In this document: positions 801 through 58,623 of the stretch, piece by piece
How the letters are laid out: each line of letters opens with the position of its first letter
Position numbering within the stretch: position 1 is the first letter of the stretch
Notes under the pieces: model-generated
Told to the model about the DNA's origin: nothing
The model's input: only the letters and a program-made list of their open reading frames with translations
The model's database searches: none
Source: a virus
Direction: 5' to 3' (one strand)
Virus record (IMG/VR): IMGVR_UViG_3300005471_000003
Span: 1 to 58,623 of that record
DNA length: 58,623 nt
Translations under genes and position numbers: made by a program

Positions 801-1136
801 ATGAATGGGCGATTCAACATCCGACACCATCAAACACAAATAATTGATACTGCAATGAAATGGACGGTCAATCATTCACGTAACGCAGTTGCAGCTAAAG
901 CCCGCAAGCGCATGACCGAACCTGACTTCAAAATCGAAGTCCAGCACCGTGAACGCTGCCGTCGCGCAAAGGCCAAGTGGAGACTTCAAATCCGCGATCT
1001 TGAACACGGCGATTCTCTGACACTGTTGCTCTACCAACTTCCTTGGCCTGCCAGATACGCTGGCTCAGACGGACGCCAGCATTCTGCCGCTGGTCTTGGC
1101 CGGTTCCTGGCAACACTTTTCACCCAAGCAGCATGA
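801..1136 (+). CDS. hypothetical basic protein
   Basis: 111-aa ORF, Arg/Lys-rich, co-oriented. No motif recognised. Confidence 0.35.
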   Translation: MNGRFNIRHHQTQIIDTAMKWTVNHSRNAVAAKARKRMTEPDFKIEVQHRERCRRAKAKWRLQIRDLEHGDSLTLLLYQLPWPARYAGSDGRQHSAAGLGRFLATLFTQAA

Positions 1137-1182
1137 CATTTCCTTTGCCTTCAGGTCGGTGACGAGGTAGAACGGTGGCGAC

Positions 1183-1211
1183 TTCACAAGAGTCGGTCGC
1201 AATCGTATAAT
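1183..1211 (+). promoter_or_regulatory. sigma70-like promoter candidate (TTCACA-17 nt-TATAAT)
   Basis: TTCACA at 1183-1188, a 17-nt spacer, TATAAT at 1206-1211, about 28 nt upstream of the GTG at 1239. Confidence 0.3.
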
Positions 1212-1238
1212 AACTTTGCCGTTGGTTTCGTTTGGCGC

Positions 1239-2267
1239 GTGCGCCTACTTGCCGAGCCATCTTGTGAACGGAACCAGCGGCGTTTTTCTGCCTATGAAGA
1301 AATGAAACAAGCCATTGAATCCTCCGACATCAAAGCTCTCCGCAAAGTTCTCAGTGAAATCAACATCAACATCAGTGCGATACGCAGCAACGCCAAAAAC
1401 TTCGTCAGTAACGCAATCGTCGCTGGTCAGTTGCTCGCGAAAATAAAAGAGGCGACGAAGTATGGCGATTGGAGAGGCTTCCTGGAATCCGTTGAACTCA
1501 CTCACAACACGGCTGCTCGTTACATGAGATTGTGGGAGCATCGAACCGCTATTGACCTGAAGACTGTAAAGTCTTTGTCGGATGCCGAAGCGATGATTGC
1601 GCAGCTCTGCGATTCAGTCTCAGAATTTCAAGGAATTGAAACACCTACCTCGCAAAATGAACCACTTACACATGAACAAACATCAGATTCAGAGACTCAA
1701 AAACGATCCGGTTTGGGGACCGACTCTGGCCATACTGGAACTGCTCGGCGGGAAGCCAAAGAAGCCGATCCAAAAGCCCGTCCGTCCGCGTTCGACGTTG
1801 ACGAAATACCGAGGGATAATTCACGGGCCTATTTGAGCGGACCAGCGAAGCCAGAAAAGAATGGTGCTCCAAAGCCGGATGTTCGATTGGACAAGGAAGG
1901 CAGGAAAATACCGGATGATGTTCTTCCGTTGTGGGATAAATCACTGGCCTTAGCGACTCATCTCCGGTCGATCATCAGCGAGGTCAAATGCACCTTGGAA
2001 AACGGGATTGAAAAGGATGATATTTTTGGAGAGCTGGCCAATCCGATTATCTCCGACCTTCGCTCTGTGCATTACACGCTTTCCCATCTCATTCCATACG
2101 CCCTTTGCCACAAATGCAGCGGCGTGAACTGGAAGCAGTGTCCGGTCTGTCATCATCGAGGGTTCTACTCGAAACTGTATTGGGATGGTCCGACCGTTGG
2201 AGAAGCAATGCGAACTGTAATCCGTAACGGAGTCAAATCACATGCAAGCCAGACCTTATCAGCGTGA
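1239..2267 (+). CDS. DUF3102-like phage protein with a C-terminal CxxC zinc-finger
   Basis: AGQLLAKIKEATKYGDWRGFLESVELTHNTAARYMRLWE resembles the DUF3102 core. C-terminal CHKCSGVNWKQCPVCHHRGF. Start is GTG 1239 or ATG 1302 (MKQAIESS). Confidence 0.55.
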   Translation: MRLLAEPSCERNQRRFSAYEEMKQAIESSDIKALRKVLSEININISAIRSNAKNFVSNAIVAGQLLAKIKEATKYGDWRGFLESVELTHNTAARYMRLWEHRTAIDLKTVKSLSDAEAMIAQLCDSVSEFQGIETPTSQNEPLTHEQTSDSETQKRSGLGTDSGHTGTARREAKEADPKARPSAFDVDEIPRDNSRAYLSGPAKPEKNGAPKPDVRLDKEGRKIPDDVLPLWDKSLALATHLRSIISEVKCTLENGIEKDDIFGELANPIISDLRSVHYTLSHLIPYALCHKCSGVNWKQCPVCHHRGFYSKLYWDGPTVGEAMRTVIRNGVKSHASQTLSA

Positions 2268-3891
2268 GGCAGTCGAGGCCGTGTTCACTGAATGGAACAC
2301 GGTGCGTAGAACATTGGGCGTTGCTCCAACCGGAGCAGGCAAAACCAACATAGCGTGCGATGTGATTCGCCGGATGCTTCCAAAGAGAAGTATTTTCTTG
2401 GCTCATAGAGTAGAACTAATCCGCCAGGCTGTTGACCGATTGGCGAGTTTTGGAATCGAATCTGAAATTGAGCAAGGAAGCCAGTTCGCCAGCGGATCGC
2501 TCTGGAATAATAAACCCGTCGTCGTCGCCACGCCTCAGACTCTATTTGCCAGAGACGGTGCCAGGTTGAGTCGCTTTGATCCTGACGAGTTCGGCTGTCT
2601 AATCATCGACGAAACGCACCATTACGTTGCTGATGCCTTCCGAAAGCCACTGGACCACTTCTGCCAAAACTCAGAACTGAAGGTGCTCGGACTAACGGCC
2701 ACGGCAGACCGCGCGGACGGCGAGGCTCTGAGTCAGATCATGGATTCAGTCGCGTTCAACATCGAGATTTGTTCTCTCATTGATGACGGCTGGCTGGTGC
2801 CGATTGAACAGCAGTTCGTGAAGATTGAGGGCTTAGACTTCTCCCATTGCAGGGTTAGAGACGGCGAGTTGAACGGACGCGATTTGGAAGAAGTGATGAA
2901 GATGGAGAAAAACCTTTTGGGCATCGGGGCGGCCAGCATTGATGTCATCGGCAATAAACGTGCAATCGTATTCTGTGCAGCAGTTAAACAAGCGGAGCGT
3001 CTCGCCGAGATTTTCAATCGACACAAACCAAACTGTGCTGATTGGATTTATGCGAAGACACCTCCAGACATTCGCAAGGAGAAGCTGGATAACTTCGCCA
3101 GTGGCAAAATCCAGATTCTAACGAATGTCGGAGTTTTGACCGAGGGCTATGACAACCCGGCAATCGAGGTCGTTGTCCAGGCGCGTCCAACCATGAGCCG
3201 AAGTCTTTACGCTCAAATGATTGGCCGAGGCATGAGGGCTTTGACGGGAGTTCTGTACGATGGTCTGACAACCGCCGATGAACGCAAGGCAGCAATCGCC
3301 GCCAGTCTGAAGCCTAGACTGTTGGTTCTGGACTTCGCTGGAAATAGCGGACGGCATAAACTCATCACAACTGCGGACATTCTTGGTGGTAAAGTTTCGG
3401 AGCAGGCAAGAGATAGGGCCATCGCAAGACTTCGTGAAACTGGCAAGGCAGTGAATGTGACCGAGGCAATGATGGAAGCCGAAGCACAGCTTCACCGTGA
3501 GCTTGAAGAATTCAAGAAACGCGATGCCGCAAAACGCGCCAATCTTACAGCCAAAGCTCAGATTGCTCTAACTTACGTTAATCCGTTTGAGGCGATTCAA
3601 AAGAACGCTGAGAAATGGAAAAGCTTCAAGCAACGGCATCCACTAAGCTCGAAACAGCGTCACATGATCCTGCGATTCGGCAAAGACCCTGACAGAATGA
3701 CAGTCGAGGAAGGAGCGCAATTCCTGAATTCTAAATTCGCAATGTCGGATGGACAACGGCGAGTTCTAATTCGCGCTGGATACAAACCCGAAGAAATCGA
3801 CGGCATAAAGAAATGGGAAGCAAGCAAGCTGATCGAAGGAGTAGCATCGAACCACTGGAAGCGACCGAAGCTCGAATCAGTGACGACTTAA
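2242..3891 (+). CDS. superfamily-2 DEAD/DExH-box helicase
   Basis: RPYQ near the N-terminus, Walker A APTGAGKT, DExH IIDETHH, motif III LTATADR, motif VI QMIGRGMR. Confidence 0.85.
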   Translation: MQARPYQREAVEAVFTEWNTVRRTLGVAPTGAGKTNIACDVIRRMLPKRSIFLAHRVELIRQAVDRLASFGIESEIEQGSQFASGSLWNNKPVVVATPQTLFARDGARLSRFDPDEFGCLIIDETHHYVADAFRKPLDHFCQNSELKVLGLTATADRADGEALSQIMDSVAFNIEICSLIDDGWLVPIEQQFVKIEGLDFSHCRVRDGELNGRDLEEVMKMEKNLLGIGAASIDVIGNKRAIVFCAAVKQAERLAEIFNRHKPNCADWIYAKTPPDIRKEKLDNFASGKIQILTNVGVLTEGYDNPAIEVVVQARPTMSRSLYAQMIGRGMRALTGVLYDGLTTADERKAAIAASLKPRLLVLDFAGNSGRHKLITTADILGGKVSEQARDRAIARLRETGKAVNVTEAMMEAEAQLHRELEEFKKRDAAKRANLTAKAQIALTYVNPFEAIQKNAEKWKSFKQRHPLSSKQRHMILRFGKDPDRMTVEEGAQFLNSKFAMSDGQRRVLIRAGYKPEEIDGIKKWEASKLIEGVASNHWKRPKLESVTT

Positions 3892-3921
3892 GAACATCAA
3901 CGACGTGCCGAGATTTTTATT

Positions 3922-4737
3922 ATGCCGTTTTTTGATGTCAAGGCAAAATGGACTCACGTTTCAAAAACGCAGCCTTGTCCGGTTTGCAAAAAGCCTGACT
4001 GGTGTGTCATCGGCGAACGCTGGATAAATTGCATGAGAGTGACCAGCGACAAGACGTGCAAGAACGGCGGATGGCTGCATCCAATCAACGGCGAATTCAA
4101 ACCTGTGCGGCCAATTGAACAATGGAAACCGTCATCACGACCGAACTTCACAAATCTAATGGAACGTTGGCAACTGGACACATTGCCGATGGCCGTCACG
4201 AAGTTCGCAGAAGAACTCGGTGTGCATCACACGGCGCTTTATGCTTTGGGCTGTGCGTGGTCACGGCTGCACATGGCCTGGGCGTTCCCTATGGTTGACG
4301 GGAACAGGAACATAATCGGCATCAGACTGCGGAACCATGAAGGCCGGAAATGGGCCGTGAAAGGCTCGCAGCAAGGTTTGTTTGTGCCGTCCAGCAAGCC
4401 GGATTCGATGGCGTTCGTGTGCGAAGGACCGACAGATGCCGCCGCCGCGTTGAGCTTGGGATTCTACGCGGTTGGCAGGCCATCCTGCTTGGGCGGGACT
4501 GAGCATTTGAAAACGCTATTCCGTAGTCGGCACGTTCAACGCGCGGTCCTGCTCGCCGACAACGACGAACCTGGTATCCGAGGTGCCGAACGATTGGCGG
4601 TTGAGATCGGGTTGCCGTGCGCGTTGCTGATTCTGCCGGCTAAAGACGTTAGAGCTTTTGTTCAGGCAGGCGGAACAAGACTGATGGTTGAGGCGATACT
4701 GCATGATACCATCTGGCGGCATCCTAAAAGACCATGA
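3922..4737 (+). CDS. DNA primase (zinc-binding N-terminus plus Toprim domain)
   Basis: CPVCKKPDWC zinc motif. Toprim signatures CEGPTDAAA and LLADNDEPGIRGAE. Confidence 0.75.
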   Translation: MPFFDVKAKWTHVSKTQPCPVCKKPDWCVIGERWINCMRVTSDKTCKNGGWLHPINGEFKPVRPIEQWKPSSRPNFTNLMERWQLDTLPMAVTKFAEELGVHHTALYALGCAWSRLHMAWAFPMVDGNRNIIGIRLRNHEGRKWAVKGSQQGLFVPSSKPDSMAFVCEGPTDAAAALSLGFYAVGRPSCLGGTEHLKTLFRSRHVQRAVLLADNDEPGIRGAERLAVEIGLPCALLILPAKDVRAFVQAGGTRLMVEAILHDTIWRHPKRP

Positions 4738-12724: not shown

Positions 12725-13390
12725 AGAAAACCTATCACACCCGGAACTCGCTTCACAAGGATTGTCGCAATTGGCCCGCACAAACGCATCGAGAAAGGAA
12801 ACCGTTGGCGCTGGCATGTTTTCTGCCGATGCGATTGCGGTAAAGAATTATGGATGGATGAAGACAGCCTTCGTTCAGGCAACTCAAAGTCATGCCAATG
12901 TATAAAGGTCATCAACATGAAAAAATTGGCAACGACACACGGACATTCTGCTGGAAGAAAAAGGACACAAGTCTATCAAGTGTGGGTTGGAATGCGCCAG
13001 AGATGCCGAGATTCTAAAGACAGATTCTGGCACCGTTACGGAGGTCGCAACATTACTGTCTGTGAACGCTGGCAGACGTTCGAGAATTTTGTGGAAGATA
13101 TGGGGCCAGGAAAGCGTGGTTGGACTATCGAAAGAGTGCAAAATGATTCCGGGTATTGTTTGCAAAATTGTGTGTGGGCACAGCTAATTCATCAGGCTCG
13201 CAATCGTTCAAACAACCGAATTGTTACCGTTGGAGGAAAAACTGGATGCGTGGCTGCATTGGCAGAACATTTCAAAATATCCAATGCTGTTGTCCGAAAC
13301 CGATTGCATTCGGGATGGAGTGTTGAAGACGCATTCTTTAAGCCGGTGCGAGCACGCGCTGGATTGCCTCAAGCAACTGATCTTTTGTAA
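12716..13390 (+). CDS. His-less HNH-like (homing-endonuclease-like) protein, paralog 1
   Basis: CRCDCGKE...SCQC, YGGRNITVCERWQTFENFVEDMG, ERVQNDSGYCLQNCVWAQ..QARN. Paralog of 20303-20926. The family is recalled from many phage and bacterial genomes and its function is unproven. Confidence 0.6.
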   Translation: MPKRKPITPGTRFTRIVAIGPHKRIEKGNRWRWHVFCRCDCGKELWMDEDSLRSGNSKSCQCIKVINMKKLATTHGHSAGRKRTQVYQVWVGMRQRCRDSKDRFWHRYGGRNITVCERWQTFENFVEDMGPGKRGWTIERVQNDSGYCLQNCVWAQLIHQARNRSNNRIVTVGGKTGCVAALAEHFKISNAVVRNRLHSGWSVEDAFFKPVRARAGLPQATDLL

Positions 13391-14840
13391 ACGGTTTAAA
13401 AATCATAGCCGCTGGTTCCGGCTCAATTGGTTCCTCAAACTCTCGCCCGGTAATGAAGATCGTTATAGGATGGAACCCCTGCGCGTGCAAATTACGCACT
13501 AATTCCCGACCGCAAAAAATTGGAAGCGCCAAATCGCTTATCAGCAAATCCACTTTCTCAGCAGACCTAAAGAAATTCAATGCTTCCGGCCCATTGCAAG
13601 CTGAGAGCACTTTGTAATTTGCTTGCTCAAGCATTTCAGTCATCAAACAGCGCAATCCTTCTTCATCATCCACGAGCACGATGACTTCACCGTTGCCTTT
13701 GAATTCGATCTTTGGCCGTTCGGCTTCCTGAACGAATATCGGCAAATAAATGTTGAACGTCGTGCCGTTTGATCCAGTCTCGACCGCGACAAAACCTCCG
13801 TGTGCTTCCAGAATCGGCTTCACCATAGCCAGTCCAAGTCCGGTGCCTTCGCTGCCTTTGGTCGTGAAATACGGTTCCCACACCTTGTCGATAATATCTT
13901 CAGGGATTCCAGGCCCTGAATCCCTGACTGATATGCACACATAATCTCCTGCCGGTTGTTGCAATGTTTTATTCTGAGCTTCGATGGAGAGTTTTCCGCC
14001 TCCCGGTTGCATGGCATATATCGCATTGATGGCCATGTTGACCAATAGCGTATTGATCTGCGTAGAGTCGCATTTGATGTTGGACGTGCCAACTTCGGTT
14101 CGGACGCTCAACTGGACATTGGATGCGCTCGCTTTGTAACGGATCATGTTTCCAACTTCTCCAAGCAAAGTATCCGGCGTAACATTCTTCAAAGCGACTC
14201 CGTTTGATCCTTTCGAGAACGTCATCATCTGCTGAACGAGTCCGGCACCTTTGTTCGCTGCGTTCCACATCGAATCGACGATATGTACGTCAGAGGGATT
14301 TACTCGACCCCTCAGAAGACCGATACCCATGACGACTGATGAAAGCGTATTGTTGATGTCGTGGCAAATTGCGGAAGTTAGTGCGCCAACGGCTTCGTGA
14401 CGCTGATTTCTCATGGCTTGAGCCTTCAGCCTTTCTACTTCCTTGGCTTGTCGATCCAACTCCTCCGCTTGTCTTGACTGACGATGCGCTTGCGTGATGG
14501 CCCTTGGCAAACCAATCAATGAGTCCTTGAGAAAGAACCTCGAAGCTCCTGCGTCACACGCGAGATCGGCTTCTCTTGGCCCCACACTTCCTGTCAGGAT
14601 TATAACGGGAGTAAACGGATGAAGACCGCGTGAAAGTCGAATGGCTTCTTGTCCGGTTATGTCTGGTAGCGCGAGATCAACGACGACGACATCAGTTTTT
14701 TCGTTCAGCAACTTTCTGAATTCCACACCGTTTACGGCCACATCCACAATTGCCACGCCGCGAAGCTCTCGCATCACGAGCATGGCATCGTTCCCGTCAT
14801 TTTCGAGGAGCACGACCTTGATCTTATCAGCCGCACTCAT
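13338..14840 (-). CDS. hybrid sensor histidine kinase (REC-HisKA-HATPase_c-REC)
   Basis: REC1 VVLLENDG...VVVVDLALPDITG. H-box SAICHDINNTLS. N-box LLVNMAINAIYAM. G1 VRDSGPGIP. G2 GTGLGLAMV. REC2 IVLVDDEEGL...LLISDLALP...KPF. Confidence 0.85.
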   Translation of the reverse strand: MSAADKIKVVLLENDGNDAMLVMRELRGVAIVDVAVNGVEFRKLLNEKTDVVVVDLALPDITGQEAIRLSRGLHPFTPVIILTGSVGPREADLACDAGASRFFLKDSLIGLPRAITQAHRQSRQAEELDRQAKEVERLKAQAMRNQRHEAVGALTSAICHDINNTLSSVVMGIGLLRGRVNPSDVHIVDSMWNAANKGAGLVQQMMTFSKGSNGVALKNVTPDTLLGEVGNMIRYKASASNVQLSVRTEVGTSNIKCDSTQINTLLVNMAINAIYAMQPGGGKLSIEAQNKTLQQPAGDYVCISVRDSGPGIPEDIIDKVWEPYFTTKGSEGTGLGLAMVKPILEAHGGFVAVETGSNGTTFNIYLPIFVQEAERPKIEFKGNGEVIVLVDDEEGLRCLMTEMLEQANYKVLSACNGPEALNFFRSAEKVDLLISDLALPIFCGRELVRNLHAQGFHPITIFITGREFEEPIEPEPAAMIFKPFTKDQLLEAIQRVLAPA

Positions 14841-32416: not shown

Positions 32417-33099
32417 ACGATTGCGGCAGGTATCCAGCAACTTTCGTGGAGCTTGGCAACTTGGTCTGACTTGATATGCTTCTTCAAAATATCATTGCGC
32501 ACAAAAATCTTCGCCCGGAGCGGGCATTCACAGGCTTGACACACACCGAGCTTGTCGTCGAGCGAGGTGGACACATCCATGTCTTTCAACATTCCCGCGA
32601 CAAGCATGAGTTCTCGGGCGGTTTCCTTGACGAAGTACTTTGTCAATCCCCCAGTCACGTCGTTTTTAGGACACGCGACGCAGACGGACGCACGGCGTTC
32701 CGCTTCCTCCTTCGCAATGACCTTTCCATCTGGCCCGAATAAATCCCGGTAGATAGCAAGAGCCGTCTTAATGTTGCCCACAGCATTTGCGGCGTTTCGG
32801 AGCTTGCCCATCAGTCCCGTTTTTTTTTGAACAGGTGATTCGCCTTCCAGGTCCACAAAGTTCAAGTAACCGGCTGCGACCATTCGATGCGCATTGTAGC
32901 GATCTATGTCATCGGCAACGTCGTCCGGGTCAAGGCTCCAACCGTTCTTTTCAACGAGAGCTGGATTACGTGACCGAAAGTCCAGTTCCTTGCGCACGAT
33001 TTCTGAAAACGACCCTTTCCAAGGCGCTGTTTGTCCGGCTTCAGGGTGGATCGCCTGGAACTCTCCCGGTATGAACTTGTCGCGTGATTTTAGTTTCAT
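32413..33099 (-). CDS. hypothetical Cys-motif protein
   Basis: Start at MKLKSRDK (33099) overlaps the terminase stop. CVACPKND...CQACECPL. Confidence 0.5.
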   Translation of the reverse strand: MKLKSRDKFIPGEFQAIHPEAGQTAPWKGSFSEIVRKELDFRSRNPALVEKNGWSLDPDDVADDIDRYNAHRMVAAGYLNFVDLEGESPVQKKTGLMGKLRNAANAVGNIKTALAIYRDLFGPDGKVIAKEEAERRASVCVACPKNDVTGGLTKYFVKETARELMLVAGMLKDMDVSTSLDDKLGVCQACECPLRAKIFVRNDILKKHIKSDQVAKLHESCWIPAAIV

Positions 33100-35984
33100 C
33101 AGTTCGAGTGCGTAAGCGTGTATGAGCGGCGAAGCGTCTGCGCTCGCCGACGCAAATCCATCTTCCAAGATGCGTCTTCCATTTCTTCTTCTTTTCCAGG
33201 CAATCTGGCAATCTGAAATCCTCGGCGTCGTGCGCCTTCCAATAGAATGACTCCGCAATCAGCCAGGTCTGGGCTTTCTCCAGTTCGTTCCTTCATCTCT
33301 GCCTTCGTCTCAATTTCTATCTTGGAATTCTGGACGTAATCCCACTCGCGCCGGCACAACTCAGCCGCCATATCCTGCGGCAACTGGCGCATCTGATCGC
33401 TGATAATGACCATGTGCATTGCGAACCAAAGCTCAGTCACGAACCGGCTGTAAAGCTCATCGCACCTCTGTAATCTTCGGGTCTTACGGTCTCCGTCCCA
33501 CATGAACGTGTCGTTCGATACAGGACGTTCCGTCGCTCTACCGCCGAACTCGACCGCCTCAACCTTGGGACTCCAAAGGCGAGCGAACGCCACGGCGAGA
33601 CTACCTCGACCGTCGAAGAAGAAGTTTTCAGGCGGCACATTGACGCTCTGCATGTAGTCCCGAACGAAGTTAGCAATCTGATCTTCCGGCAGAACGAATC
33701 TGTTTACCTTGACTGGCACAAGCACCAATGGATGACAGGCGACAACGACATGGCCGTTCACGTCTTTTCCAAATTCGATGTGACCAGCCACGCACCTGTC
33801 ACCGCCCATGCCACCGTAAGCAGCGTCGCAAGCGCCGATCTTGATTGTCGGTTCACCGAGCCACGTCACTTCTGAGAAGGCGTGATACGTCTCGCACATG
33901 GCCCGCGTCACGACTCGCCGCGCAACAGCACCTGGCCGTGGTTTACCGACGCACTGCATGAACCATTGCCATGAATCTTTGCCGTGCGTACGGCCGACAG
34001 CTTCAATCTTCTTCCGGCCAATCAGGTATTTGTAGCGTGTGGGTTGGTCAGGTGGATAATCGAAGTTAGGCGAGTCTCGACCGTCGAATGCGACGACTTG
34101 GGCGTTGTAAAACTTGGACCTCCAAACTTGGGTTTTTTCAGTATCGTGCCATGAATCCCATCCCTCTGCGGGTTCGGCAGCACGGCACAGGGTGTCGTCT
34201 AAGTCAAATGGATTGCCAGCGAGTATCCCCTTGAATGATCCTTCAGCTTTCCCGTAAAAATTGGAGTAGGCGTCAAGGAACACGCCCTCCATAGATTGAC
34301 AATTTTTCGCTACTAATCCGTTTACGCTGTAGCTGGAATGTCCTTCGACTTGGAGAGTATAGACTTCAACTCCTTGAGGACTTGTTCGGTATCTTTCAAA
34401 ATCCTCTTGTTGGAGAATCTCAACACTTGCCACCCAAGCCCCCGAAGAAAACGATCTTTTACACTGTCTCGCCTCTTGGTTATTTCTTGAGAATGGGAAG
34501 GACCATCGGCTTCGACCGCTATTTTCAGAGTTGGAAATGCCACGTCTATGCGATAACGGCCCATCGGGAAATTCCAATGACCTTCGGGAAATGCCTTCAA
34601 CAATACTTTTTCTGCTGCTGTAGCTCCCATCCGAAGATTGTATCGAACCGGCCAATCCCATCCTTTCTTTTTCATTGTCCGAGAAAGTTTCAATCTGTTG
34701 GCAGGATTCTTCATTGGATGATGAGCAATCATCTTTTGAAGTGTTTGGGGATTCTGAGAAGGATTGAACTTCTTCATGCGACGACTCAAGCGAACCCTCA
34801 AGTCGGGTTGTTCGATGTACCGTTTGAGATTCGCTTTGGAGATTTTTGCACCGCGTGATTTTGTGTAAATCTTGGAACGAATGTCCGATTGAGAAAGGTG
34901 CCATTTCCCGGCGCAACTCATTGAACAAAATACGTGAAGTGTGCGCTCCGGGTGAAACCTGGACTGGCGTTGGCCGCGAGAAGGATGGAAACGTTTTCCG
35001 CAGTTGGTGCATTGCCGAGTCACTGATTCTACACGGCATTTCATGGAGCAAAATTTCTGGCTTGTGTGCGGATTGTGCATTGGCGTTCCGCAAACTGTGC
35101 ATGGTCTCATAAGCAGAGAGCATATAATGACAGCTCGCCAACTTACAAGCTTCAATCCAGCCATGTTGAGTAAACAAAGGATGATTACCTGTGCAAACAA
35201 TTTCTCTGCCATCTGTGGTATTGATCCGATAAAGGGAAGTGGCTGGTCGGTGCATAGTGCCGATTACCCGATGCGGACCATCTGCCGAAATTACTTCATC
35301 GCCTGCACGAATCGTCTCAATCGCACGCGAACCAGTAGGCGTGTCCACCATTGTTCCAGCAGGGAAACACTCGTCACCGCAATGTCCCAGTCGACCGCCT
35401 GCCTGTGGTTTTATTCCAGTGTAGCTTCCTAATCCCGTCCAAACATTTCCGCGCTTACATGGAATAAACACTACCCCTCTGGTCAAAAGCCGACCCTCAC
35501 TGTTATCGGTGCAAGTGGCATCCGTTGTGATTACGTGGGCTGATTCCAATACCGTTCCAGGCAAATTTCTGTGGAGTTCGCGAGCGCGATTGAATTGCTG
35601 TTTTATTACGCCCCAAATCCTTAGTTCTGCCCCACGTAATTCGGTGGATGATACCATCCAAAGAGCTTTATCCGGTCGTGCCCACCAATCTACGAGGACG
35701 AATTTTGCCATCGACCAAGTTTTATTGGCGTCGGAGCAGCCCATGAAAACAGTCACCTCATTCTCAACCATCGCTCTGAGCGCCAAATCTGACCATCTAT
35801 GATGATCGTCAGTTGGCCATAGAATAGACTGCGCCTCCCTGTAATGATCGAACAGGTTTAGGTTATGCTGTTTCCTCCACTCATCTGTCTGCGCGATTAT
35901 CTCGAACTCGACGGCCAGAGGTGAAGTGTTCGATGTCCATTGCAGGCCGTACTTGACGAAGAATGGCGGGCGATTGGTGGCCAT
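33099..35984 (-). CDS. terL: terminase large subunit precursor, interrupted by an intein
   Basis: Walker A-like GCSDANKT and Walker B GRLGHCGDE. Nuclease-domain motifs IGACDAAYGG and ESPDLADCGVILLEGARRRG in the C-extein. Intein at residues 206-561. Confidence 0.8.
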   Translation of the reverse strand: MATNRPPFFVKYGLQWTSNTSPLAVEFEIIAQTDEWRKQHNLNLFDHYREAQSILWPTDDHHRWSDLALRAMVENEVTVFMGCSDANKTWSMAKFVLVDWWARPDKALWMVSSTELRGAELRIWGVIKQQFNRARELHRNLPGTVLESAHVITTDATCTDNSEGRLLTRGVVFIPCKRGNVWTGLGSYTGIKPQAGGRLGHCGDECFPAGTMVDTPTGSRAIETIRAGDEVISADGPHRVIGTMHRPATSLYRINTTDGREIVCTGNHPLFTQHGWIEACKLASCHYMLSAYETMHSLRNANAQSAHKPEILLHEMPCRISDSAMHQLRKTFPSFSRPTPVQVSPGAHTSRILFNELRREMAPFSIGHSFQDLHKITRCKNLQSESQTVHRTTRLEGSLESSHEEVQSFSESPNTSKDDCSSSNEESCQQIETFSDNEKERMGLAGSIQSSDGSYSSRKSIVEGISRRSLEFPDGPLSHRRGISNSENSGRSRWSFPFSRNNQEARQCKRSFSSGAWVASVEILQQEDFERYRTSPQGVEVYTLQVEGHSSYSVNGLVAKNCQSMEGVFLDAYSNFYGKAEGSFKGILAGNPFDLDDTLCRAAEPAEGWDSWHDTEKTQVWRSKFYNAQVVAFDGRDSPNFDYPPDQPTRYKYLIGRKKIEAVGRTHGKDSWQWFMQCVGKPRPGAVARRVVTRAMCETYHAFSEVTWLGEPTIKIGACDAAYGGMGGDRCVAGHIEFGKDVNGHVVVACHPLVLVPVKVNRFVLPEDQIANFVRDYMQSVNVPPENFFFDGRGSLAVAFARLWSPKVEAVEFGGRATERPVSNDTFMWDGDRKTRRLQRCDELYSRFVTELWFAMHMVIISDQMRQLPQDMAAELCRREWDYVQNSKIEIETKAEMKERTGESPDLADCGVILLEGARRRGFQIARLPGKEEEMEDASWKMDLRRRAQTLRRSYTLTHSN
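34302..35369 (-). mobile_element. class-1 intein (356 codons) inserted after the terminase Walker B
   Basis: Starts CFPAGTMVD, block B CTGNHPLF. Ends EGHSSYSVNGLVAKN, followed by Cys+1 (CQSMEG). The central ~245 codons are Ser/Arg/Glu-rich low complexity. Confidence 0.8.
34322..35110 (-). CDS. nested free-standing homing endonuclease (zinc ribbons + NP repeats + DUF559/Vsr-type nuclease) in the +1 frame of the intein
   Basis: MRPCTVCGTPM..FCSMKC, CTNCGKRF..FCSMSC, KKFNPSQNP/HHPMKNPANR, YRIDVAFPTLKIAVEADGPSH...RRDSVKDRFLRGLGWQVLRF. The track ORF 34322..35212 is open further upstream. Confidence 0.7.
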   Translation of the reverse strand: MRPCTVCGTPMHNPHTSQKFCSMKCRVESVTRQCTNCGKRFHPSRGQRQSRFHPERTLHVFCSMSCAGKWHLSQSDIRSKIYTKSRGAKISKANLKRYIEQPDLRVRLSRRMKKFNPSQNPQTLQKMIAHHPMKNPANRLKLSRTMKKKGWDWPVRYNLRMGATAAEKVLLKAFPEGHWNFPMGRYRIDVAFPTLKIAVEADGPSHSQEITKRRDSVKDRFLRGLGWQVLRFSNKRILKDTEQVLKELKSILSKSKDIPATA

Positions 35985-38900
35985 TTATTTGAGTGACCCA
36001 CCGATTAGCTTGTAGAAATCCAGAAGCGTATCCTCTTTTTCCTTCTGCGCCTGAAGATACAGTTCGGCATCCTTTTTCGTGAAGGTCGATGCCCATGCCT
36101 TTTCCAAGTCCTGAGATCCAGTATAAGGATGTTCCAAATACTGCGTCATGGCTTTCTCGACTTGGCTGGTTGTGCGGGTCTTCAACAAGTCATCCAGAAT
36201 CTTCCGTGCGTCCTTGTATTTACCGATGTTTAGCGCGGTTCTGAGCTTCAAATACGACGGTTCATCTGTTGGGATGATTTCAACAATCGGCATCAGACCT
36301 TGTTTCTCCCGCCATTCATGCGCTTTCCTGGCAACATCGTTCACTCTCATGTCGCGTCTGTTGGCGAATCCCATTGATGTGCCCAGCGATTCAAGCAACG
36401 TCCTATCCCGCTCGTTCAATCCTCCAAGACCAATCGGTTGCCATGCCTGTGCGATGCGTTGGAATTTCTTCTCGAAACTAAGTTTGGCTCCAGTCCGTTC
36501 ATCTCTACCGAATAGGAAATCTGTTACCGGCCTCGAATACGCCGGACTCAGACGCACATAAGTAAATTGGCCTGGGTTCTCCACTGCATGTGCCAAGTCA
36601 CCCACAACAGAGCGCATACCGACCCAATGATATTTCCCTTTTGAATCCTTAACCTTCACTTCAAACATGTGGCGATTATCGTCCGCTTCAGCGTTGCCGT
36701 GCGTCAGCCAGTTGCCGAGACGCGCTCCGAAATACAACGTGCCAAGCATGGTCGCAATTGCCAGTCGTTCTTCGTCACCGTACCGGCTGAAGAACTTAGA
36801 GGCGAACCGCAGTCTGGCTTCTCCGAAATCTGGCGCAAGAAACACAAGTCTGAGCATCCGTTGTAACTGAGGATCGCGACCTGCCTTTCCAAGGAACATC
36901 TGGTTAAGTTCACCAAACGCGCTGTTCGATGCGTCTCCGATGCGAGCGGCCAGATCGTTCTCTGTAAGCCGACCTGCTCGCAGTCCTCTGCCTGTCGCAC
37001 TGAGAGGCGACCTCGCCCGAGCCATTGCGTTCTCGAACGTGTTTAGCTTCAGTCTCGGGATGTACTGATGAAACATGAAATCCGAGAATGCACTGATGAA
37101 CCGGCCGTACAGCGGGATTTTCTTCAGCAACGGTCCAGTGATGCCTTCCTCGAACACACTCAACTCAGCGGGACTCGGAGCGAGTTTCAGGTGGCCTTTT
37201 TCGATGGCGAACCGTGTGGCAGGCGATTCAAAATCTATCGGTGACCATTTGAACGGGTTCGTCCAGTGAAACGCCGCGTGCGTGCCGACGTGGACGATAT
37301 GAAACGTAGATGGCAACAGACCGAGCTTGAAAGTCTTGGCTGTTGACCCCACGGCAAGCGCACCGCGCATCAAACGACCGGCTGTCAGGCGCGATTTCTC
37401 CATGAACCGAGAGAGTGTTTCGTGGAATTCAGGATGAACAACCATGTCACCGCGCATCATCACGTTCCGGCCTTCAGGCGTGTTGGTCAGCCATTTCCAG
37501 CCTTGCAACGCCGGATGATTGATTGCCAGGTAATCTGATATTTCTTTTGCCTGTGTCTTAGGCGTGATGAGCACTGGACTGTCAGCAGCCGTTCTGTCTG
37601 GAATGACTGACCCACCACGAACATCAACAGCAGGCCGTCCGTCACTGGCTTTCAATTCGGACAGTGCTTTGATGAAAGTTCGGCTCGCTATCGCTCGGTC
37701 CATTGCGAAGTTGTAGAATGGAACCACCTTCGCAGGATCAAGAATCGGTTTCTTGCCTTCGAGTATCCCTTCGATCAACGACGGAATCTTTCGCTCGCGT
37801 GCAAACTGAAAGTAAGTATTTACTCGCCCGGTTGCGATGGCTCCACGCAACGAGTCTGGCATGTTGGATTCTTTCTTCCAGACGTGCGTGTAGTAATCCT
37901 TCAACCCTTCCTCGAACAAATCAGCACCAACAGCGTCCTGCTCACGAATGCCGAAGTACTGTTTCAACTGCTCTGAAAAGGCTCGCAGTTCAAGCGACGG
38001 ATCAAGCGCACGTTCCAATGCCGCCCTGACATTTTTTGGTGTATCAGACGGCAGAAGGGCCAGAGCATCTTTAATGACCTGGCGCACCTCAGCGGGTGTG
38101 GCGAGTGCATCTGGATTTACCGCAAGTCTGTTCGGGTCTTTGCTGGCTATACGCGCCGAATCAATGAGGATCGCGGCAGCTTCACGATCCGTCACGTCTT
38201 TCATCTGGCGCAGGATGGCTTCACCGGCACGTTTCGATGCTGCGCTCGAATACTGAATCGCGTAATCGTATTCGCCTAATCGACTGTCCAAGTCAGATGC
38301 CTTACGAATGCCTTCCCACCAATGTTTCGCTGTGACACCGGCATTCGCCATTCTGCCAACTGCCTTCGTCCATAGATCGCCTTTCTTCGACCACGCATCG
38401 GCGATTCGTTCGCCAAGAGCAAGACGCTGTTTGGTTCCGACTTTTGGAGTGGCATTAAGTTGATCGGTCAACTGTTGGATGGGCGGATACTTCGGAGCAC
38501 CTGCTGTCTTGGCACCTGGCCCTTCGCCAAACGCAGGAGGTTCTTCACGAAGCTCTGACCCTGAACTTCGGAGCAATTGTTCAACTGGCATCGTTCGTTC
38601 AAGTTCGTCAAGATGCCCTCGAAACTCAGCCATGCGCCCAATCAATTCCGATTTGGCACGTGGAATGTCAGGATGATCGTCGCTACTACTTATCAATCTG
38701 GCCAACAAATCCCGTATGCGAGAGCGTTCTGCGGCGGCTTGTTCAGCTAGAAATTTAGCGTGGGGAGGATATTTTACACCACTCTTGTCGATCTCCTTGA
38801 AATAATCCCGCCACGCATCAAGCCGTGCAGTTTCAGCGTCGAAAACTTTGTTGACCTGTTGATCTGTAAGACTGCGCCAATCCAGTCCGCTCTCTCGACG

Positions 38901-40823
38901 CGGCAAATCCCGCATCAATGCTCTTTGAGCTTCGGTGGCGGTGCCGATTCGTTGTATGGCGCTGGTGAAGCCTGCAAGATCAACGATTTTGCTTGGCTGC
39001 TTTCCTTCAGAAGCAGGCTCCCGTCCGGCAGTTCCTCCAGGCTGCTCCCGTCCTTGAATTTTTGAACTTGGTTCTTCACGCAGTTCGGATGGTGGCACAA
39101 TCGACTCTTTTTGACCAGCCAATTCAGGTGCGGGCGCAGGCGCGGCGGGCTGCGCTGCGGTTGGCCCTGCTGATTCCGCGAACTGCTTAGCCAGCGCCTC
39201 CGTCTTGAAATTGCCCATGACAAGCCCCTGCTCATCGCTCACCGCCCACAGTCTGTTGACGCGATCCCACTGCACCCAGCGCCGACCTTGCGCTGTCGTC
39301 GCCACCCAGAAGTGAGGTTTGCCGCCCGCTGTGGCGGAGGGCACCTTGCGCCACTGGTTTAAGCCTTCAGGCAAAGCTGGCGCGGTCCCTGTGGGCATTA
39401 CTTCAACGGGCTGCGCTGCGGGCGCTTCCTCTGCGCGTGCGGCGGCTTGCTCCTCGGCGCTCAGTGCGGCGGGGTCTCGTGCCCGTTCAATCTGCACCGG
39501 ACGAGGTTGCTCCTCGCCAAAGTAATACCGCGCCATCTCCGGTGCGTCCGCGCCGTAAACAGCCTGCAACTCGCCTGCGATCTGCGCTTTGATGGTGTCG
39601 AGTGGGACGCCTTGTTCTTTGGCTGCTTTGCCAATCTTCTGCATGGCCTGTTCAGCAGCGGTCTTCATCGCTGGGTCGCGTGCGGCGCGACGGATTAGAC
39701 GGACAAGAGCGGGAACGGGCGACGACCCGGCAACATCGCTCACGTCTATGTCAGCGACGGCCTTTGCAATGTCTTCGGCGACGAGTTGAGCTTCGCCTTC
39801 CGGTCCTTCTGGCAACGCTCTAACGCGCTGCATCTCAGCGTCTTCTCGGGTCAATGGAACTTTGGAGACTTCTTGTGCTTGTTCGCCTGCTCGAACTCCC
39901 TCAGGACTCGGCGTGGTGGGCAGGACTTGTTCGCCTTCGACGGTTGGTGGGCGCACATTCGGAAGAAGTTCGCCTGTTTCTGACTTTTGTACGGCACTTG
40001 GCACCTCCTGTTGTTTGGGTTGTTCTGTTCTTATCTCAGTAACTGTTGATGGCACCTCGATGTCTTCACGCAATGCTCTGATCGAACGCGAGAATTTTGG
40101 TGCCTGACCGTGCAAGAACGGTCCAGCGACCATTGGCGCATTCACCGCCAAATCGCCAACAGCTTCGTAGTAACCAGCTCTGTCGCCTTCCTCGCGTGCT
40201 TTCTGGATTCGTCGAATGGATTCCAAGGTTCCTTCAGTGCCCATTGCAGCCCAAGCAGGCAACATGATTTGCGGTGCCACTGGTGTTGCAGCAAGACCAA
40301 CTATTCCTCCGGGCGTAGCGACGGCTTCAACTAATTTCTCAGCACTTTTACCCACACCACTGCGAACGGGATGTTGCACGCTGAATACGTGTTCCTTGAG
40401 CTTTCGGCGTTCGATCTGTTCGGGAGTTTCTTCGACAGAAGGTGGAACTACAATCGGAGTCAATGGAGCTGGCATCGGTTCTTCCGGTGCCTTGATCTTA
40501 TTGAACCATTCCAATCCTTTCCCAATCAGACCGCCTATTGTCGGTTCTGGAACTCGCTCGTTCCAACGTGGATCAATTCTCTGAAGCGCAATGTTGATTG
40601 CCTGCTGTTCTTCAGGCGTTGTCGGAACTGGCTCGCGAAGCTGCTCCGGTGGGCGTTGCTGAAAAACAATCGGTTGCGACTCTAAAGTGGCGTGCTCAGT
40701 AAAATCCGGCAGGTCTTCTACGGCAACAGCATCACCGGAGAAGTCTGGCAGCGTGTCATTGACATCTTCAGGCACGATTACTTTTTCTGAAGCAGTTTGC
40801 CGTCTTTTGGATTCACGAACCAC
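35985..40823 (-). CDS. very large virion-associated protein (function unknown)
   Basis: 1612-aa ORF immediately upstream of terL. The N-terminal ~600 aa are Pro/Ala/Glu-rich; the rest is non-repetitive. Alternative GTG start at 40775 would avoid the overlap with the upstream gene. Confidence 0.65.
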   Translation of the reverse strand: MVRESKRRQTASEKVIVPEDVNDTLPDFSGDAVAVEDLPDFTEHATLESQPIVFQQRPPEQLREPVPTTPEEQQAINIALQRIDPRWNERVPEPTIGGLIGKGLEWFNKIKAPEEPMPAPLTPIVVPPSVEETPEQIERRKLKEHVFSVQHPVRSGVGKSAEKLVEAVATPGGIVGLAATPVAPQIMLPAWAAMGTEGTLESIRRIQKAREEGDRAGYYEAVGDLAVNAPMVAGPFLHGQAPKFSRSIRALREDIEVPSTVTEIRTEQPKQQEVPSAVQKSETGELLPNVRPPTVEGEQVLPTTPSPEGVRAGEQAQEVSKVPLTREDAEMQRVRALPEGPEGEAQLVAEDIAKAVADIDVSDVAGSSPVPALVRLIRRAARDPAMKTAAEQAMQKIGKAAKEQGVPLDTIKAQIAGELQAVYGADAPEMARYYFGEEQPRPVQIERARDPAALSAEEQAAARAEEAPAAQPVEVMPTGTAPALPEGLNQWRKVPSATAGGKPHFWVATTAQGRRWVQWDRVNRLWAVSDEQGLVMGNFKTEALAKQFAESAGPTAAQPAAPAPAPELAGQKESIVPPSELREEPSSKIQGREQPGGTAGREPASEGKQPSKIVDLAGFTSAIQRIGTATEAQRALMRDLPRRESGLDWRSLTDQQVNKVFDAETARLDAWRDYFKEIDKSGVKYPPHAKFLAEQAAAERSRIRDLLARLISSSDDHPDIPRAKSELIGRMAEFRGHLDELERTMPVEQLLRSSGSELREEPPAFGEGPGAKTAGAPKYPPIQQLTDQLNATPKVGTKQRLALGERIADAWSKKGDLWTKAVGRMANAGVTAKHWWEGIRKASDLDSRLGEYDYAIQYSSAASKRAGEAILRQMKDVTDREAAAILIDSARIASKDPNRLAVNPDALATPAEVRQVIKDALALLPSDTPKNVRAALERALDPSLELRAFSEQLKQYFGIREQDAVGADLFEEGLKDYYTHVWKKESNMPDSLRGAIATGRVNTYFQFARERKIPSLIEGILEGKKPILDPAKVVPFYNFAMDRAIASRTFIKALSELKASDGRPAVDVRGGSVIPDRTAADSPVLITPKTQAKEISDYLAINHPALQGWKWLTNTPEGRNVMMRGDMVVHPEFHETLSRFMEKSRLTAGRLMRGALAVGSTAKTFKLGLLPSTFHIVHVGTHAAFHWTNPFKWSPIDFESPATRFAIEKGHLKLAPSPAELSVFEEGITGPLLKKIPLYGRFISAFSDFMFHQYIPRLKLNTFENAMARARSPLSATGRGLRAGRLTENDLAARIGDASNSAFGELNQMFLGKAGRDPQLQRMLRLVFLAPDFGEARLRFASKFFSRYGDEERLAIATMLGTLYFGARLGNWLTHGNAEADDNRHMFEVKVKDSKGKYHWVGMRSVVGDLAHAVENPGQFTYVRLSPAYSRPVTDFLFGRDERTGAKLSFEKKFQRIAQAWQPIGLGGLNERDRTLLESLGTSMGFANRRDMRVNDVARKAHEWREKQGLMPIVEIIPTDEPSYLKLRTALNIGKYKDARKILDDLLKTRTTSQVEKAMTQYLEHPYTGSQDLEKAWASTFTKKDAELYLQAQKEKEDTLLDFYKLIGGSLK

Positions 40824-58322: not shown

Positions 58323-58623
58323 ATGAGAGACGGCGCGACCATGACGTTTGGATTCGAGAGAGACGCAATCGCGCCGTTCTCTCCATCGAATGGTTCTGCG
58401 TCGTTGTCTCTCGTGCCCGTGAAAAGAAGTGACGAAGAAATGCTCCGCAATATGCAAATCCACTACTCGCAACCGCTCGGATTCGTGGGCAGGAATATCT
58501 GCTACGCCATCGTCTGCGGTGGAATGTGCTACGGCTCAATCGTGGGCGGCTCTGCAACTCGCTTTCTGCCGGGGCGCGAAGTGGTCGGAAGCCTGAACAA
58601 CGGCGTGAACAACATCTTCTACC
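58323..58623 (+). CDS. N-terminal part of the junction-spanning DUF4338-like protein (continues at 121-458 of the circular molecule)
   Basis: ATG 58323 (or 58341), in frame with track ORF 21..458 through the 120-nt overlap. Confidence 0.55.
   Translation, partial: MRDGATMTFGFERDAIAPFSPSNGSASLSLVPVKRSDEEMLRNMQIHYSQPLGFVGRNICYAIVCGGMCYGSIVGGSATRFLPGREVVGSLNNGVNNIFY
58504..58623. repeat. Terminal direct repeat copy 2 (identical to 1-120)
   Basis: Exact 120-nt match to the window start. Confidence 0.9.

Follow-up and report, generated by a model that had tools for sequence, protein, structure and literature searches.

Does the intein of a viral packaging gene carry its homing endonuclease in an overlapping reading frame, and if so, what keeps both frames open? 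The question is raised by the IMG/VR virus record IMGVR_UViG_3300005471_000003, analyzed here at its full length of 58,623 nucleotides (positions 1 to 58,623, called the window below), where terL, the gene for the large subunit of terminase (TerL), is interrupted on the minus strand by an intein with a second open reading frame (ORF) in its +1 frame. The answer that we consider highly probable is a mobile bicistronic intein, in which a Hint-domain intein inserted in TerL is accompanied by a separate nuclease gene in the +1 frame, with the terL frame kept open by selection.

The intein and its overlapping nuclease gene

The terL precursor ORF (33099..35984, minus strand, taken from the ORF list) has 961 codons and encodes 961 aa, comprising the N-extein, the intein, and the C-extein. 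The N-extein (35370..35984, minus strand, 205 aa) ends in the Walker B motif ...GRLGHCGDE, the intein lies directly after the Walker B Asp-Glu, and the C-extein (33099..34301, minus strand, 400 aa) begins with Cys+1 followed by QSMEG... and includes the TerL nuclease domain; these limits come from the sequence itself and, for the N-extein, also from the DNA alignment of the empty site. TerL was matched weakly by sequence profiles (phrog_2, E 1.3e-4; Terminase_6N, E 0.015-0.05), no Pfam match above cut-off and no PDB match was obtained by profile, and the lineage had no match in INPHARED (50,697 deposited phage genomes). The identity of the host protein as TerL is settled by structure modeling: the AlphaFold2 (AF2) model of an intein-less homolog (P0002; predicted local distance difference test score, pLDDT, 86.7) had large terminases as its top Foldseek matches (Sf6 gp2, 4IEI, at E 3e-15, followed by HK97, D6E, and T4 gp17), and the nuclease-domain part of this model matched the TerL domains of Sf6, E217, and P74-26.

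The intein (34302..35369, minus strand, 356 aa) was assigned to class 1 from Hint profiles and splice motifs. Its first codon is TGT at 35369-35367 (CFPAGTMVD) and its last is AAT at 34304-34302 (..GLVAKN), followed by TGT for Cys+1, and it carries the N-terminal Cys nucleophile, the block B TxxH as CTGNH (residues 59-63, within CTGNHPLF), the C-terminal Asn, and the Cys+1 of this class, the C-terminal end reading ..SYSVNGLVAKN/C (the slash marks the splice junction). Frame 0 scored above the curated cut-offs for Hint_2 (35.2 bits, cut-off 28.4), PT-HINT (33.3 bits, cut-off 27.7), and TIGR01445 intein_Nterm (27.6 bits, cut-off 24.5). The Hint N-terminal lobe (35103..35369, minus strand, residues 1 to ~89) falls within the Pfam/TIGRFAM stretch of residues 1-97 and has a pLDDT of 70-83 over residues 1-60, and the C-terminal lobe (34302..34445, minus strand), which contains blocks F and G and reads GAWVASVEIL...VYTLQVEGHSSYSVNGLVAKN, has a pLDDT of 65-76 over residues 310-345 and includes the end of the Intein_splicing match at residue 356. 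Residues W312, V313, H344, Y347, and N356 are invariant in the intein alignment (A1). This is a functional-looking Hint intein in TerL, and splicing is predicted from these sequence features.

Between the 2 lobes, the intein frame encodes a Ser/Arg/Glu-rich linker (34446..35102, minus strand, residues ~90-308), with 39 S, 20 R, and 19 E among 211 residues. A profile search of frame 0 matched no family across the middle ~215 residues of the intein, and the AF2 model, built on an alignment of 11 sequences, gave a pLDDT below 50 over residues 89-308. The model thus points to a Hint fold with a structureless linker on which the only demand would be the absence of a stop codon.

The same bases encode a nuclease in the +1 frame. 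The homing-endonuclease gene (34322..35110, minus strand, 262 aa plus stop) runs from an ATG at 35110 to a TAA at 34324-34322 and was assigned from its DUF559 match, its match to PDB 3HRL, and homologs placed at Hint +1 in other loci. The ORF matched DUF559 (PF04480) at E 1e-15, scoring 58 bits against a cut-off of 20.6. Its match to 3HRL, a solved structure of the DUF559 family, had E 4.8e-9, or E 1.7e-12 with a profile. Numerous stops interrupt the third frame of this strand. Two zinc ribbons (CTVCG..FCSMKC and CTNCG..FCSMSC; 34913..35101, minus strand) were identified from conserved Cys residues and weak profile matches to zf-FCS, eL24, and the MYM zinc ribbon, with C34 and C37 invariant and C66 nearly invariant in the nuclease alignment (A2). 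The DUF559/Vsr-like nuclease domain (34358..34630, minus strand, residues 161-251) was delimited by the Pfam stretch, the 3HRL alignment, and the invariant columns of A2, in which D189, D202, G203, H206, and D215 do not vary and >=90% of the sequences share E200 and K218. The window copy retains the full set of catalytic and zinc-binding residues. The structure 3R3P (I-Bth0305I) aligned to the right region of the nuclease at E 0.28, which is not significant, the clear match being DUF559 (3HRL).

The nuclease ORF extends past the endonuclease slot of the intein. The 121 nt at 34325-34445 (34325..34445, minus strand, defined by the translations of both frames) belong to both the DUF559 domain, which reaches nuclease residue ~251, and the Hint C-lobe, which starts at intein residue ~309; here, the same bases encode the nuclease C-terminus GLGWQVLRFSN... 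and the Hint segment GAWVASVEIL..., so that the last ~40 nuclease codons are dual-coded with Hint blocks F and G.

A first reading of this DNA, made from its letters and ORF translations (the sequence-only reading), had described the terL ORF and a 356-codon intein after the Walker B, with motifs and coordinates, and every one of these sequence statements was confirmed. Separate searches of the 2 frames bore out its placement of an endonuclease in the +1 frame and of the Hint halves in frame 0, and its view that the center of the intein frame holds no recognizable domain agrees with the profile search and the AF2 model above. Its claim that the nuclease is a separate, out-of-frame gene in the classical endonuclease slot holds for the position and the separateness; confinement to the slot does not stand, given the overlap with blocks F and G. 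A tentative NUMOD3-like element was not recovered, as PF07460 had no match in the window ORF (E <=0.1) or in the 38 members of A2 (E <=0.01), and the motif "NPM...E.R.K.S..LK..GH.P" seen in the nuclease alignment is NUMOD3-like by resemblance only.

Recurrence of the layout and selection on the two frames

We scanned viral contigs with the intein alignment and obtained 80 loci, in which the Hint N-lobe is conserved; addition of the window's own copy on a Logan contig (L081) gave 81. Contigs from metagenome-assembled genomes (MAGs) were scanned with an 11-sequence subset of a 38-sequence alignment. A homolog of the window nuclease was identified in 58 of the 81 loci at 24-36% identity, and all 53 homologs on the same strand in the viral-contig scan lie at Hint frame +1, with an intein-frame ORF spanning the nuclease ORF, a regularity that applies to this clade. 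A Logan contig has the same +1 layout in a helicase, and it recurs in MAG contigs from Kiritimatiellia, Rhizomicrobium, Clostridia, and Dehalococcoidia. Altogether, 54 unique loci besides the window, in TerL and helicases and on viral contigs and MAGs, have the nuclease ORF at Hint +1 with the intein frame open, and all 38 aligned +1 ORFs of A2 match DUF559. The hosts are P-loop ATPases interrupted after the Walker B DE, namely TerL (GDE/CQ) and superfamily 2 (SF2) helicases (DE/CHH).

We analyzed whether this double openness could be due to chance. A stop in the terL frame requires a T at the end of a nuclease codon and AA, AG, or GA at the start of the codon that follows. In the window, T is present at 0 of 67 such risky junctions and at 66 of 195 others, and across the 54 unique loci the counts are 0 of 2582 and 1589 of 7310, respectively. 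Synonymous resampling of the nuclease ORF, with the codon usage of the window or by permutation of the ORF's own codons, gave a mean of 12.7-14.5 stops in the terL frame, with zero stops in 0 of 20,000 trials, and the analytic probability of zero terL-frame stops is ~5e-7. The absence of T at risky junctions and of stop-free resamplings indicates that the terL frame is kept open by selection, as the sequence-only reading had argued from a rough estimate of 1e-5, which proved conservative. Under the genetic code, a T-to-C change at a third codon position is always synonymous, so that openness should cost the nuclease no amino acid change.

These data also bear on the possibility of a sequencing or assembly artifact, in which 2 compensating indels would make an in-frame endonuclease look out of frame. 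One metagenomic contig alone cannot exclude indels, and a related locus (L082, encoding P0176) does carry a single frameshift. Against this, JGI, ENA, and Logan assemblies together have 6 contigs with the identical 961-aa protein, the same +1 offset recurs in the 54 other unique loci, and the stop-avoidance signature would be absent if frame 0 were never read. Furthermore, one segment of 121 nt serves both the DUF559 domain and the Hint C-lobe, each in its own frame. No single frame could encode both, so paired indels cannot explain the layout and an artifact is refuted in practice.

Substitution patterns distinguish the frame that is under purifying selection from the one that is only held open. 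In pairwise Nei-Gojobori comparisons of 10 related pairs, the nuclease frame had a proportion of nonsynonymous differences (pN) of 0.19-0.38 against a proportion of synonymous differences (pS) of 0.63-0.90, and the intein frame over the same bases had pN (0.33-0.49) higher than pS (0.25-0.44), with an apparent dN/dS of 1.1-1.95; these ratios come from related pairs only, the nearest relative of the window intein being 38% identical. In the 158 columns of the linker, the first, second, and third nuclease codon positions had nucleotide diversities of 0.51, 0.47, and 0.65, and the maximum at the nuclease third position means that the most variable site is the first position of the intein frame. 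Amino acid divergence of the linker was lower in the nuclease frame (0.64) than in the intein frame (0.81). Purifying selection acts on the nuclease frame and not on the overlapping intein frame. Where the last 38 nuclease codons lie over the Hint C-lobe, diversity at third positions is 0.45, compared with 0.65 over the linker, and both frames of the dual-coded stretch are conserved, with amino acid divergences of 0.565 and 0.623. The drop at third positions together with conservation in both frames marks this stretch as true dual coding.

Translation, mobility, and origin

The start of the nuclease gene is conserved: in 48 of the 54 loci, an ATG immediately follows Hint-N at about intein codon 87. 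In 25 of these 48, the +1 frame has a stop no more than 10 codons upstream of this ATG, and nuclease homologs that were annotated as proteins of their own begin with the same Met. In the window, the ATG is embedded in TAT-GAG (Tyr-Glu) of the Hint strand HYMLSAYE and the nuclease stop in GTA-AAC (Val-Asn) of block G, the stop lying 8-26 nt before the splice junction family-wide, except in 2 loci. The conserved ATG, the close upstream stops, and the starts of the homologs favor internal initiation over programmed +1 ribosomal frameshifting from the terL frame, which would yield a fusion of N-extein, Hint-N, and nuclease. Frameshifting would fit the open +1 frame of the window, which extends from 35212, 34 codons upstream of ATG 35110, inside Hint-N, and an ATG that no Shine-Dalgarno motif precedes. 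However, the stops just upstream of the ATG in about half of the 48 loci leave no room for an upstream shift, and neither a slippery motif nor a stimulatory structure was identified (z = -0.95), which together with the shared Met makes this alternative very unlikely. The other genes of the window also generally have no Shine-Dalgarno motifs.

Several observations weigh against the bicistronic intein with internal initiation that we propose. Upstream of ATG 35110, no Shine-Dalgarno motif, promoter, or significant RNA structure was identified, and a promoter/terminator scan and an RNA fold of the region around this start yielded no signal above shuffled controls. With the +1 frame open for those 34 codons, the start is assigned by homology. 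The profile PF14890 Intein_splicing scored 33.6 bits, slightly under its cut-off of 35.8, and the penultimate intein residue is Lys instead of the usual His. A penultimate His is usual in inteins and not obligatory, and several relatives depart likewise, with intein C-termini that also read AN, KN, SN, and RN. The small alignment behind the AF2 model of intein and linker belongs here as well, as does the retrieval of the loci by CFPAGT-type patterns, which limits the constant +1 offset to the clade so defined.

The history of the site can be followed in homologs. The closest TerL homologs (82-88% identity, ~600 aa; P0002-P0006) are empty and read ...GHCGDE/TQSME..., the slash marking the insertion point, with the DNA of 1 empty site (L087) being ...GGGCATTGTGGGGACGAA/ACGCAATCAATGGAG...; the comparison with homologous terL genes that the sequence-only reading had proposed thus yielded empty sites. 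Mini-inteins at the same site were identified in P0061 and P0088. More distant TerL homologs carry inteins of 300-407 aa at the Walker B site and at 2 others, for which only Hint domains are annotated, and the best identity of any intein to that of the window is 38%. A free-standing nuclease homolog (P0135, L084 4001-4618), which has no Hint domain near it in L084, overlaps by its last 4 nt with the start of an intact DEAD/ResIII helicase gene, and a gene of this type is a possible donor for the intein-borne nuclease. Internally deleted nuclease remnants are all that is left in an Acidobacteriota MAG chromosome (L104 1900-3100) and in a Myxococcota MAG (L102 500-1500). Empty and mini alleles, a free-standing homolog, and remnants together fit a mini-intein that was invaded by a free-standing endonuclease gene, then spread, and sometimes decayed.

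The same material allows for a silent relic, that is, a free-standing nuclease gene that invaded a mini-intein and is now unexpressed within a vertically inherited mini-intein with a long linker. No translation signal was detected for the nuclease, decayed versions exist (L102 and L104), and no close donor intein was found, the 38% identity being the best, all of which would suit a relic. Nevertheless, the intact catalytic and zinc-binding residues of the window copy and purifying selection on the nuclease ORF family-wide, with pN well below pS, speak against one, an unexpressed ORF of 262 codons would gather stops, and TerL homologs at 82-88% identity without the intein argue for recent gain or loss. 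We regard a silent relic as quite unlikely.

The mobile bicistronic intein that we favor would work as follows, as far as sequence allows its splicing, internal initiation, and cleavage specificity to be predicted. Straight translation of terL would give the 961-aa precursor, in which the Hint N-lobe (residues 1 to ~89) and C-lobe (~309-356) would associate across the structureless linker of ~215 residues, and class-1 splicing would join ...GDE to CQSME..., restoring the Walker B region of the packaging ATPase. Ribosomes would start independently at ATG 35110 in the +1 frame and produce a free-standing endonuclease of 262 aa, with the 2 zinc ribbons, a linker module, and the DUF559/Vsr-like catalytic domain. 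During co-infection with an intein-less relative, the expected target of the nuclease is the empty terL allele, which it would cut close to the codons of the Walker B, and recombinational repair would copy intein and nuclease gene together.

Neither a true in-frame Hint-DUF559 fusion nor a split version was identified among the loci and nuclease homologs examined. The sole candidate for an in-frame fusion among 83 database homologs, P0176, was rejected because its DNA (L082 779-2386) carries a single frameshift, by which helicase-HintN runs into the nuclease and Hint-C comes to lie in a third frame; L082, like L102 and L104, is a product of decay.

Further arrangements were observed beside the sense +1 gene. 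In the TerL of L086 (P0007, 88% identical), the Walker B intein is absent and 2 others are present: one at Walker A, with an antisense ORF (943-1683, minus strand), and one close to the C-terminus, with a +2-frame ORF (3449-4087, plus strand). Both ORFs have HNH motifs recognized by eye. CFPAGT-type inteins in L011 (2976-3899), L014 (3255-3950), and L048 (3249-3875) encode HNH_3 and zinc ribbons in the +2 frame (Pfam E 6e-13 to 8e-16), and L068 has a 364-aa +1 ORF with an HNH-like motif and no Pfam match. Antisense DUF559/Vsr-like ORFs with 4-6 zinc ribbons were identified in the same Hint clade in L024 (3229-4068), L028 (3235-4002), L037 (936-1784), L040, and L065, all on the minus strand and all with the intein frame open, a layout like the one described in actinophages by Gosselin, Arsenault & Gogarten (bioRxiv 10.1101/2025.01.02.630785).

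In the rest of the window, an exact 120-bp direct repeat occupies both ends (1-120 and 58504-58623), which indicates a complete genome, terminally redundant or circularly assembled, with a unit of 58,503 bp. A 500-aa ORF (13338-14840, minus strand) with HATPase_c (E 1e-20) and a response-regulator receiver domain (E 4e-27) encodes a hybrid histidine kinase, which is unusual phage cargo. A ResIII/DEAD/Helicase_C helicase (2242-3891, plus strand) has no intein, and inteins of the same clade are present at the Walker B of such helicases elsewhere, for example, in L083. The window holds no tRNA genes, and no Pfam match was obtained for the 1612-aa ORF upstream of terL (35985-40823) or for 5 other tested ORFs (438-788 aa).

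The layouts seen in the clade are sense +1 DUF559, sense +2 HNH, and antisense Vsr or HNH. A wider reading, on which our judgment is evenly balanced, is that they represent a large, old, and unrecognized clade of bicistronic inteins at the Walker B of phage and prophage ATPases (TerL and SF2 helicases), with the endonuclease never fused in frame and always encoded by an overlapping ORF, and that, where the gene is sense +1 DUF559, co-evolution of Hint blocks F/G with the nuclease C-terminus on shared nucleotides has made intein and nuclease physically inseparable. If so, a major group of environmental inteins would normally rely on overprinting rather than domain fusion, and there would be a route between fractured genes (split inteins) and contiguous inteins through synonymous T-to-C changes alone.

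A whole clade of Walker B-targeting inteins, in phage terminases and helicases from many environments, keeps its homing enzyme in an overlapping frame, and the main value added here is the evidence that the layout is conserved across a large and diverse clade. Gene callers report 1 ORF per stretch, so the nuclease gene escapes annotation and the intein is taken for "decaying" or for one with an unknown domain. The locus is a clean case of overprinting, in which 1 frame is selected only for openness at zero amino acid cost and 121 nt are truly dual-coded. The Hint domain is predicted to tolerate a disordered insert of >200 residues, and the nuclease is a candidate site-specific enzyme from a poorly characterized family. 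The findings also bear on the model in which the splicing domain comes first and the endonuclease invades later and on the link between contiguous and split inteins.

Comparison with known systems

The sequence-only reading knew of no intein organized in this way, and this holds for the sense-strand +1 DUF559 variant; the principle of an out-of-frame endonuclease gene within an intein had already been described. As cited in the preprints Gosselin 2025 and Phillips 2026, Gorbalenya 1998 concerns antisense or out-of-frame endonuclease genes in contiguous inteins. Our literature searches returned no sense-strand +1 DUF559 gene inside a contiguous intein and no overlap of such a gene with blocks F/G, and this form appears to be unreported.

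Gosselin et al. (10.1101/2025.01.02.630785) describe antisense LAGLIDADG, antisense VSR-like, and frame-3 endonuclease-VII-like genes in inteins, many of them in TerL, and propose an origin by invasion of a free-standing endonuclease gene. Like theirs, the intein of the window is contiguous, with the endonuclease between the lobes in another frame or strand, an in-frame middle without predicted structure, and a terminase large subunit as host. According to these authors, VSR-like endonucleases are otherwise known only from split inteins, and their own are antisense, whereas the DUF559/Vsr-like gene identified here is in sense +1 and its 3' end overlaps the splicing domain, outside which theirs "typically lie". 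In addition, their hosts are actinobacteriophages, and the host here is an uncultured non-actinophage lineage that is without an INPHARED match.

The cyanobacterial dnaX intein of Phillips, DeSimone & Gogarten (bioRxiv 10.64898/2026.09.14.751524), which carries an out-of-frame LAGLIDADG gene, shares with the terL intein the principle of the layout, a low omega in the endonuclease frame and an inflated dN/dS in the intein frame, a disordered linker, and the coexistence of full, mini, and empty alleles. It differs in that its endonuclease is LAGLIDADG, its frame is labeled "+2 ORF", and its host gene is cellular, compared with a DUF559 nuclease in a phage gene here.

I-Bth0305I and the EDxHD homing endonucleases (Taylor et al. 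2011, PMC3239194; PDB 3R3P) have a similar Vsr-like core with a conserved set of E, D, H, and D and N-terminal modular DNA-binding elements; I-Bth0305I is encoded in a group I intron, and the similarity of our nuclease to 3R3P is, as given above, not significant. ShiLan (Arsenault et al. 2025, PMC11855218), an out-of-frame HNH insertion in phage methylases, likewise hides its endonuclease ORF in an alternative frame of an insert that is stop-free in the host frame, but its endonuclease is HNH, it has no splicing domain, and the insert stays in the host protein.

In the fractured genes of Dassa et al. 2009 (PMC2677866), a Vsr-like endonuclease gene lies between the halves of a split intein, with terminase and helicases among the hosts. 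As in the window, this is a sense-strand gene of the Vsr superfamily, and its 3' overlap with the C-part of the intein is 6-69 bp there and 121 nt here. Fractured genes have 2 host ORFs and trans-splicing, whereas the window has 1 ORF of 961 codons with predicted cis splicing, and across 55 loci, the window included, the intein frame contains 0 stops.

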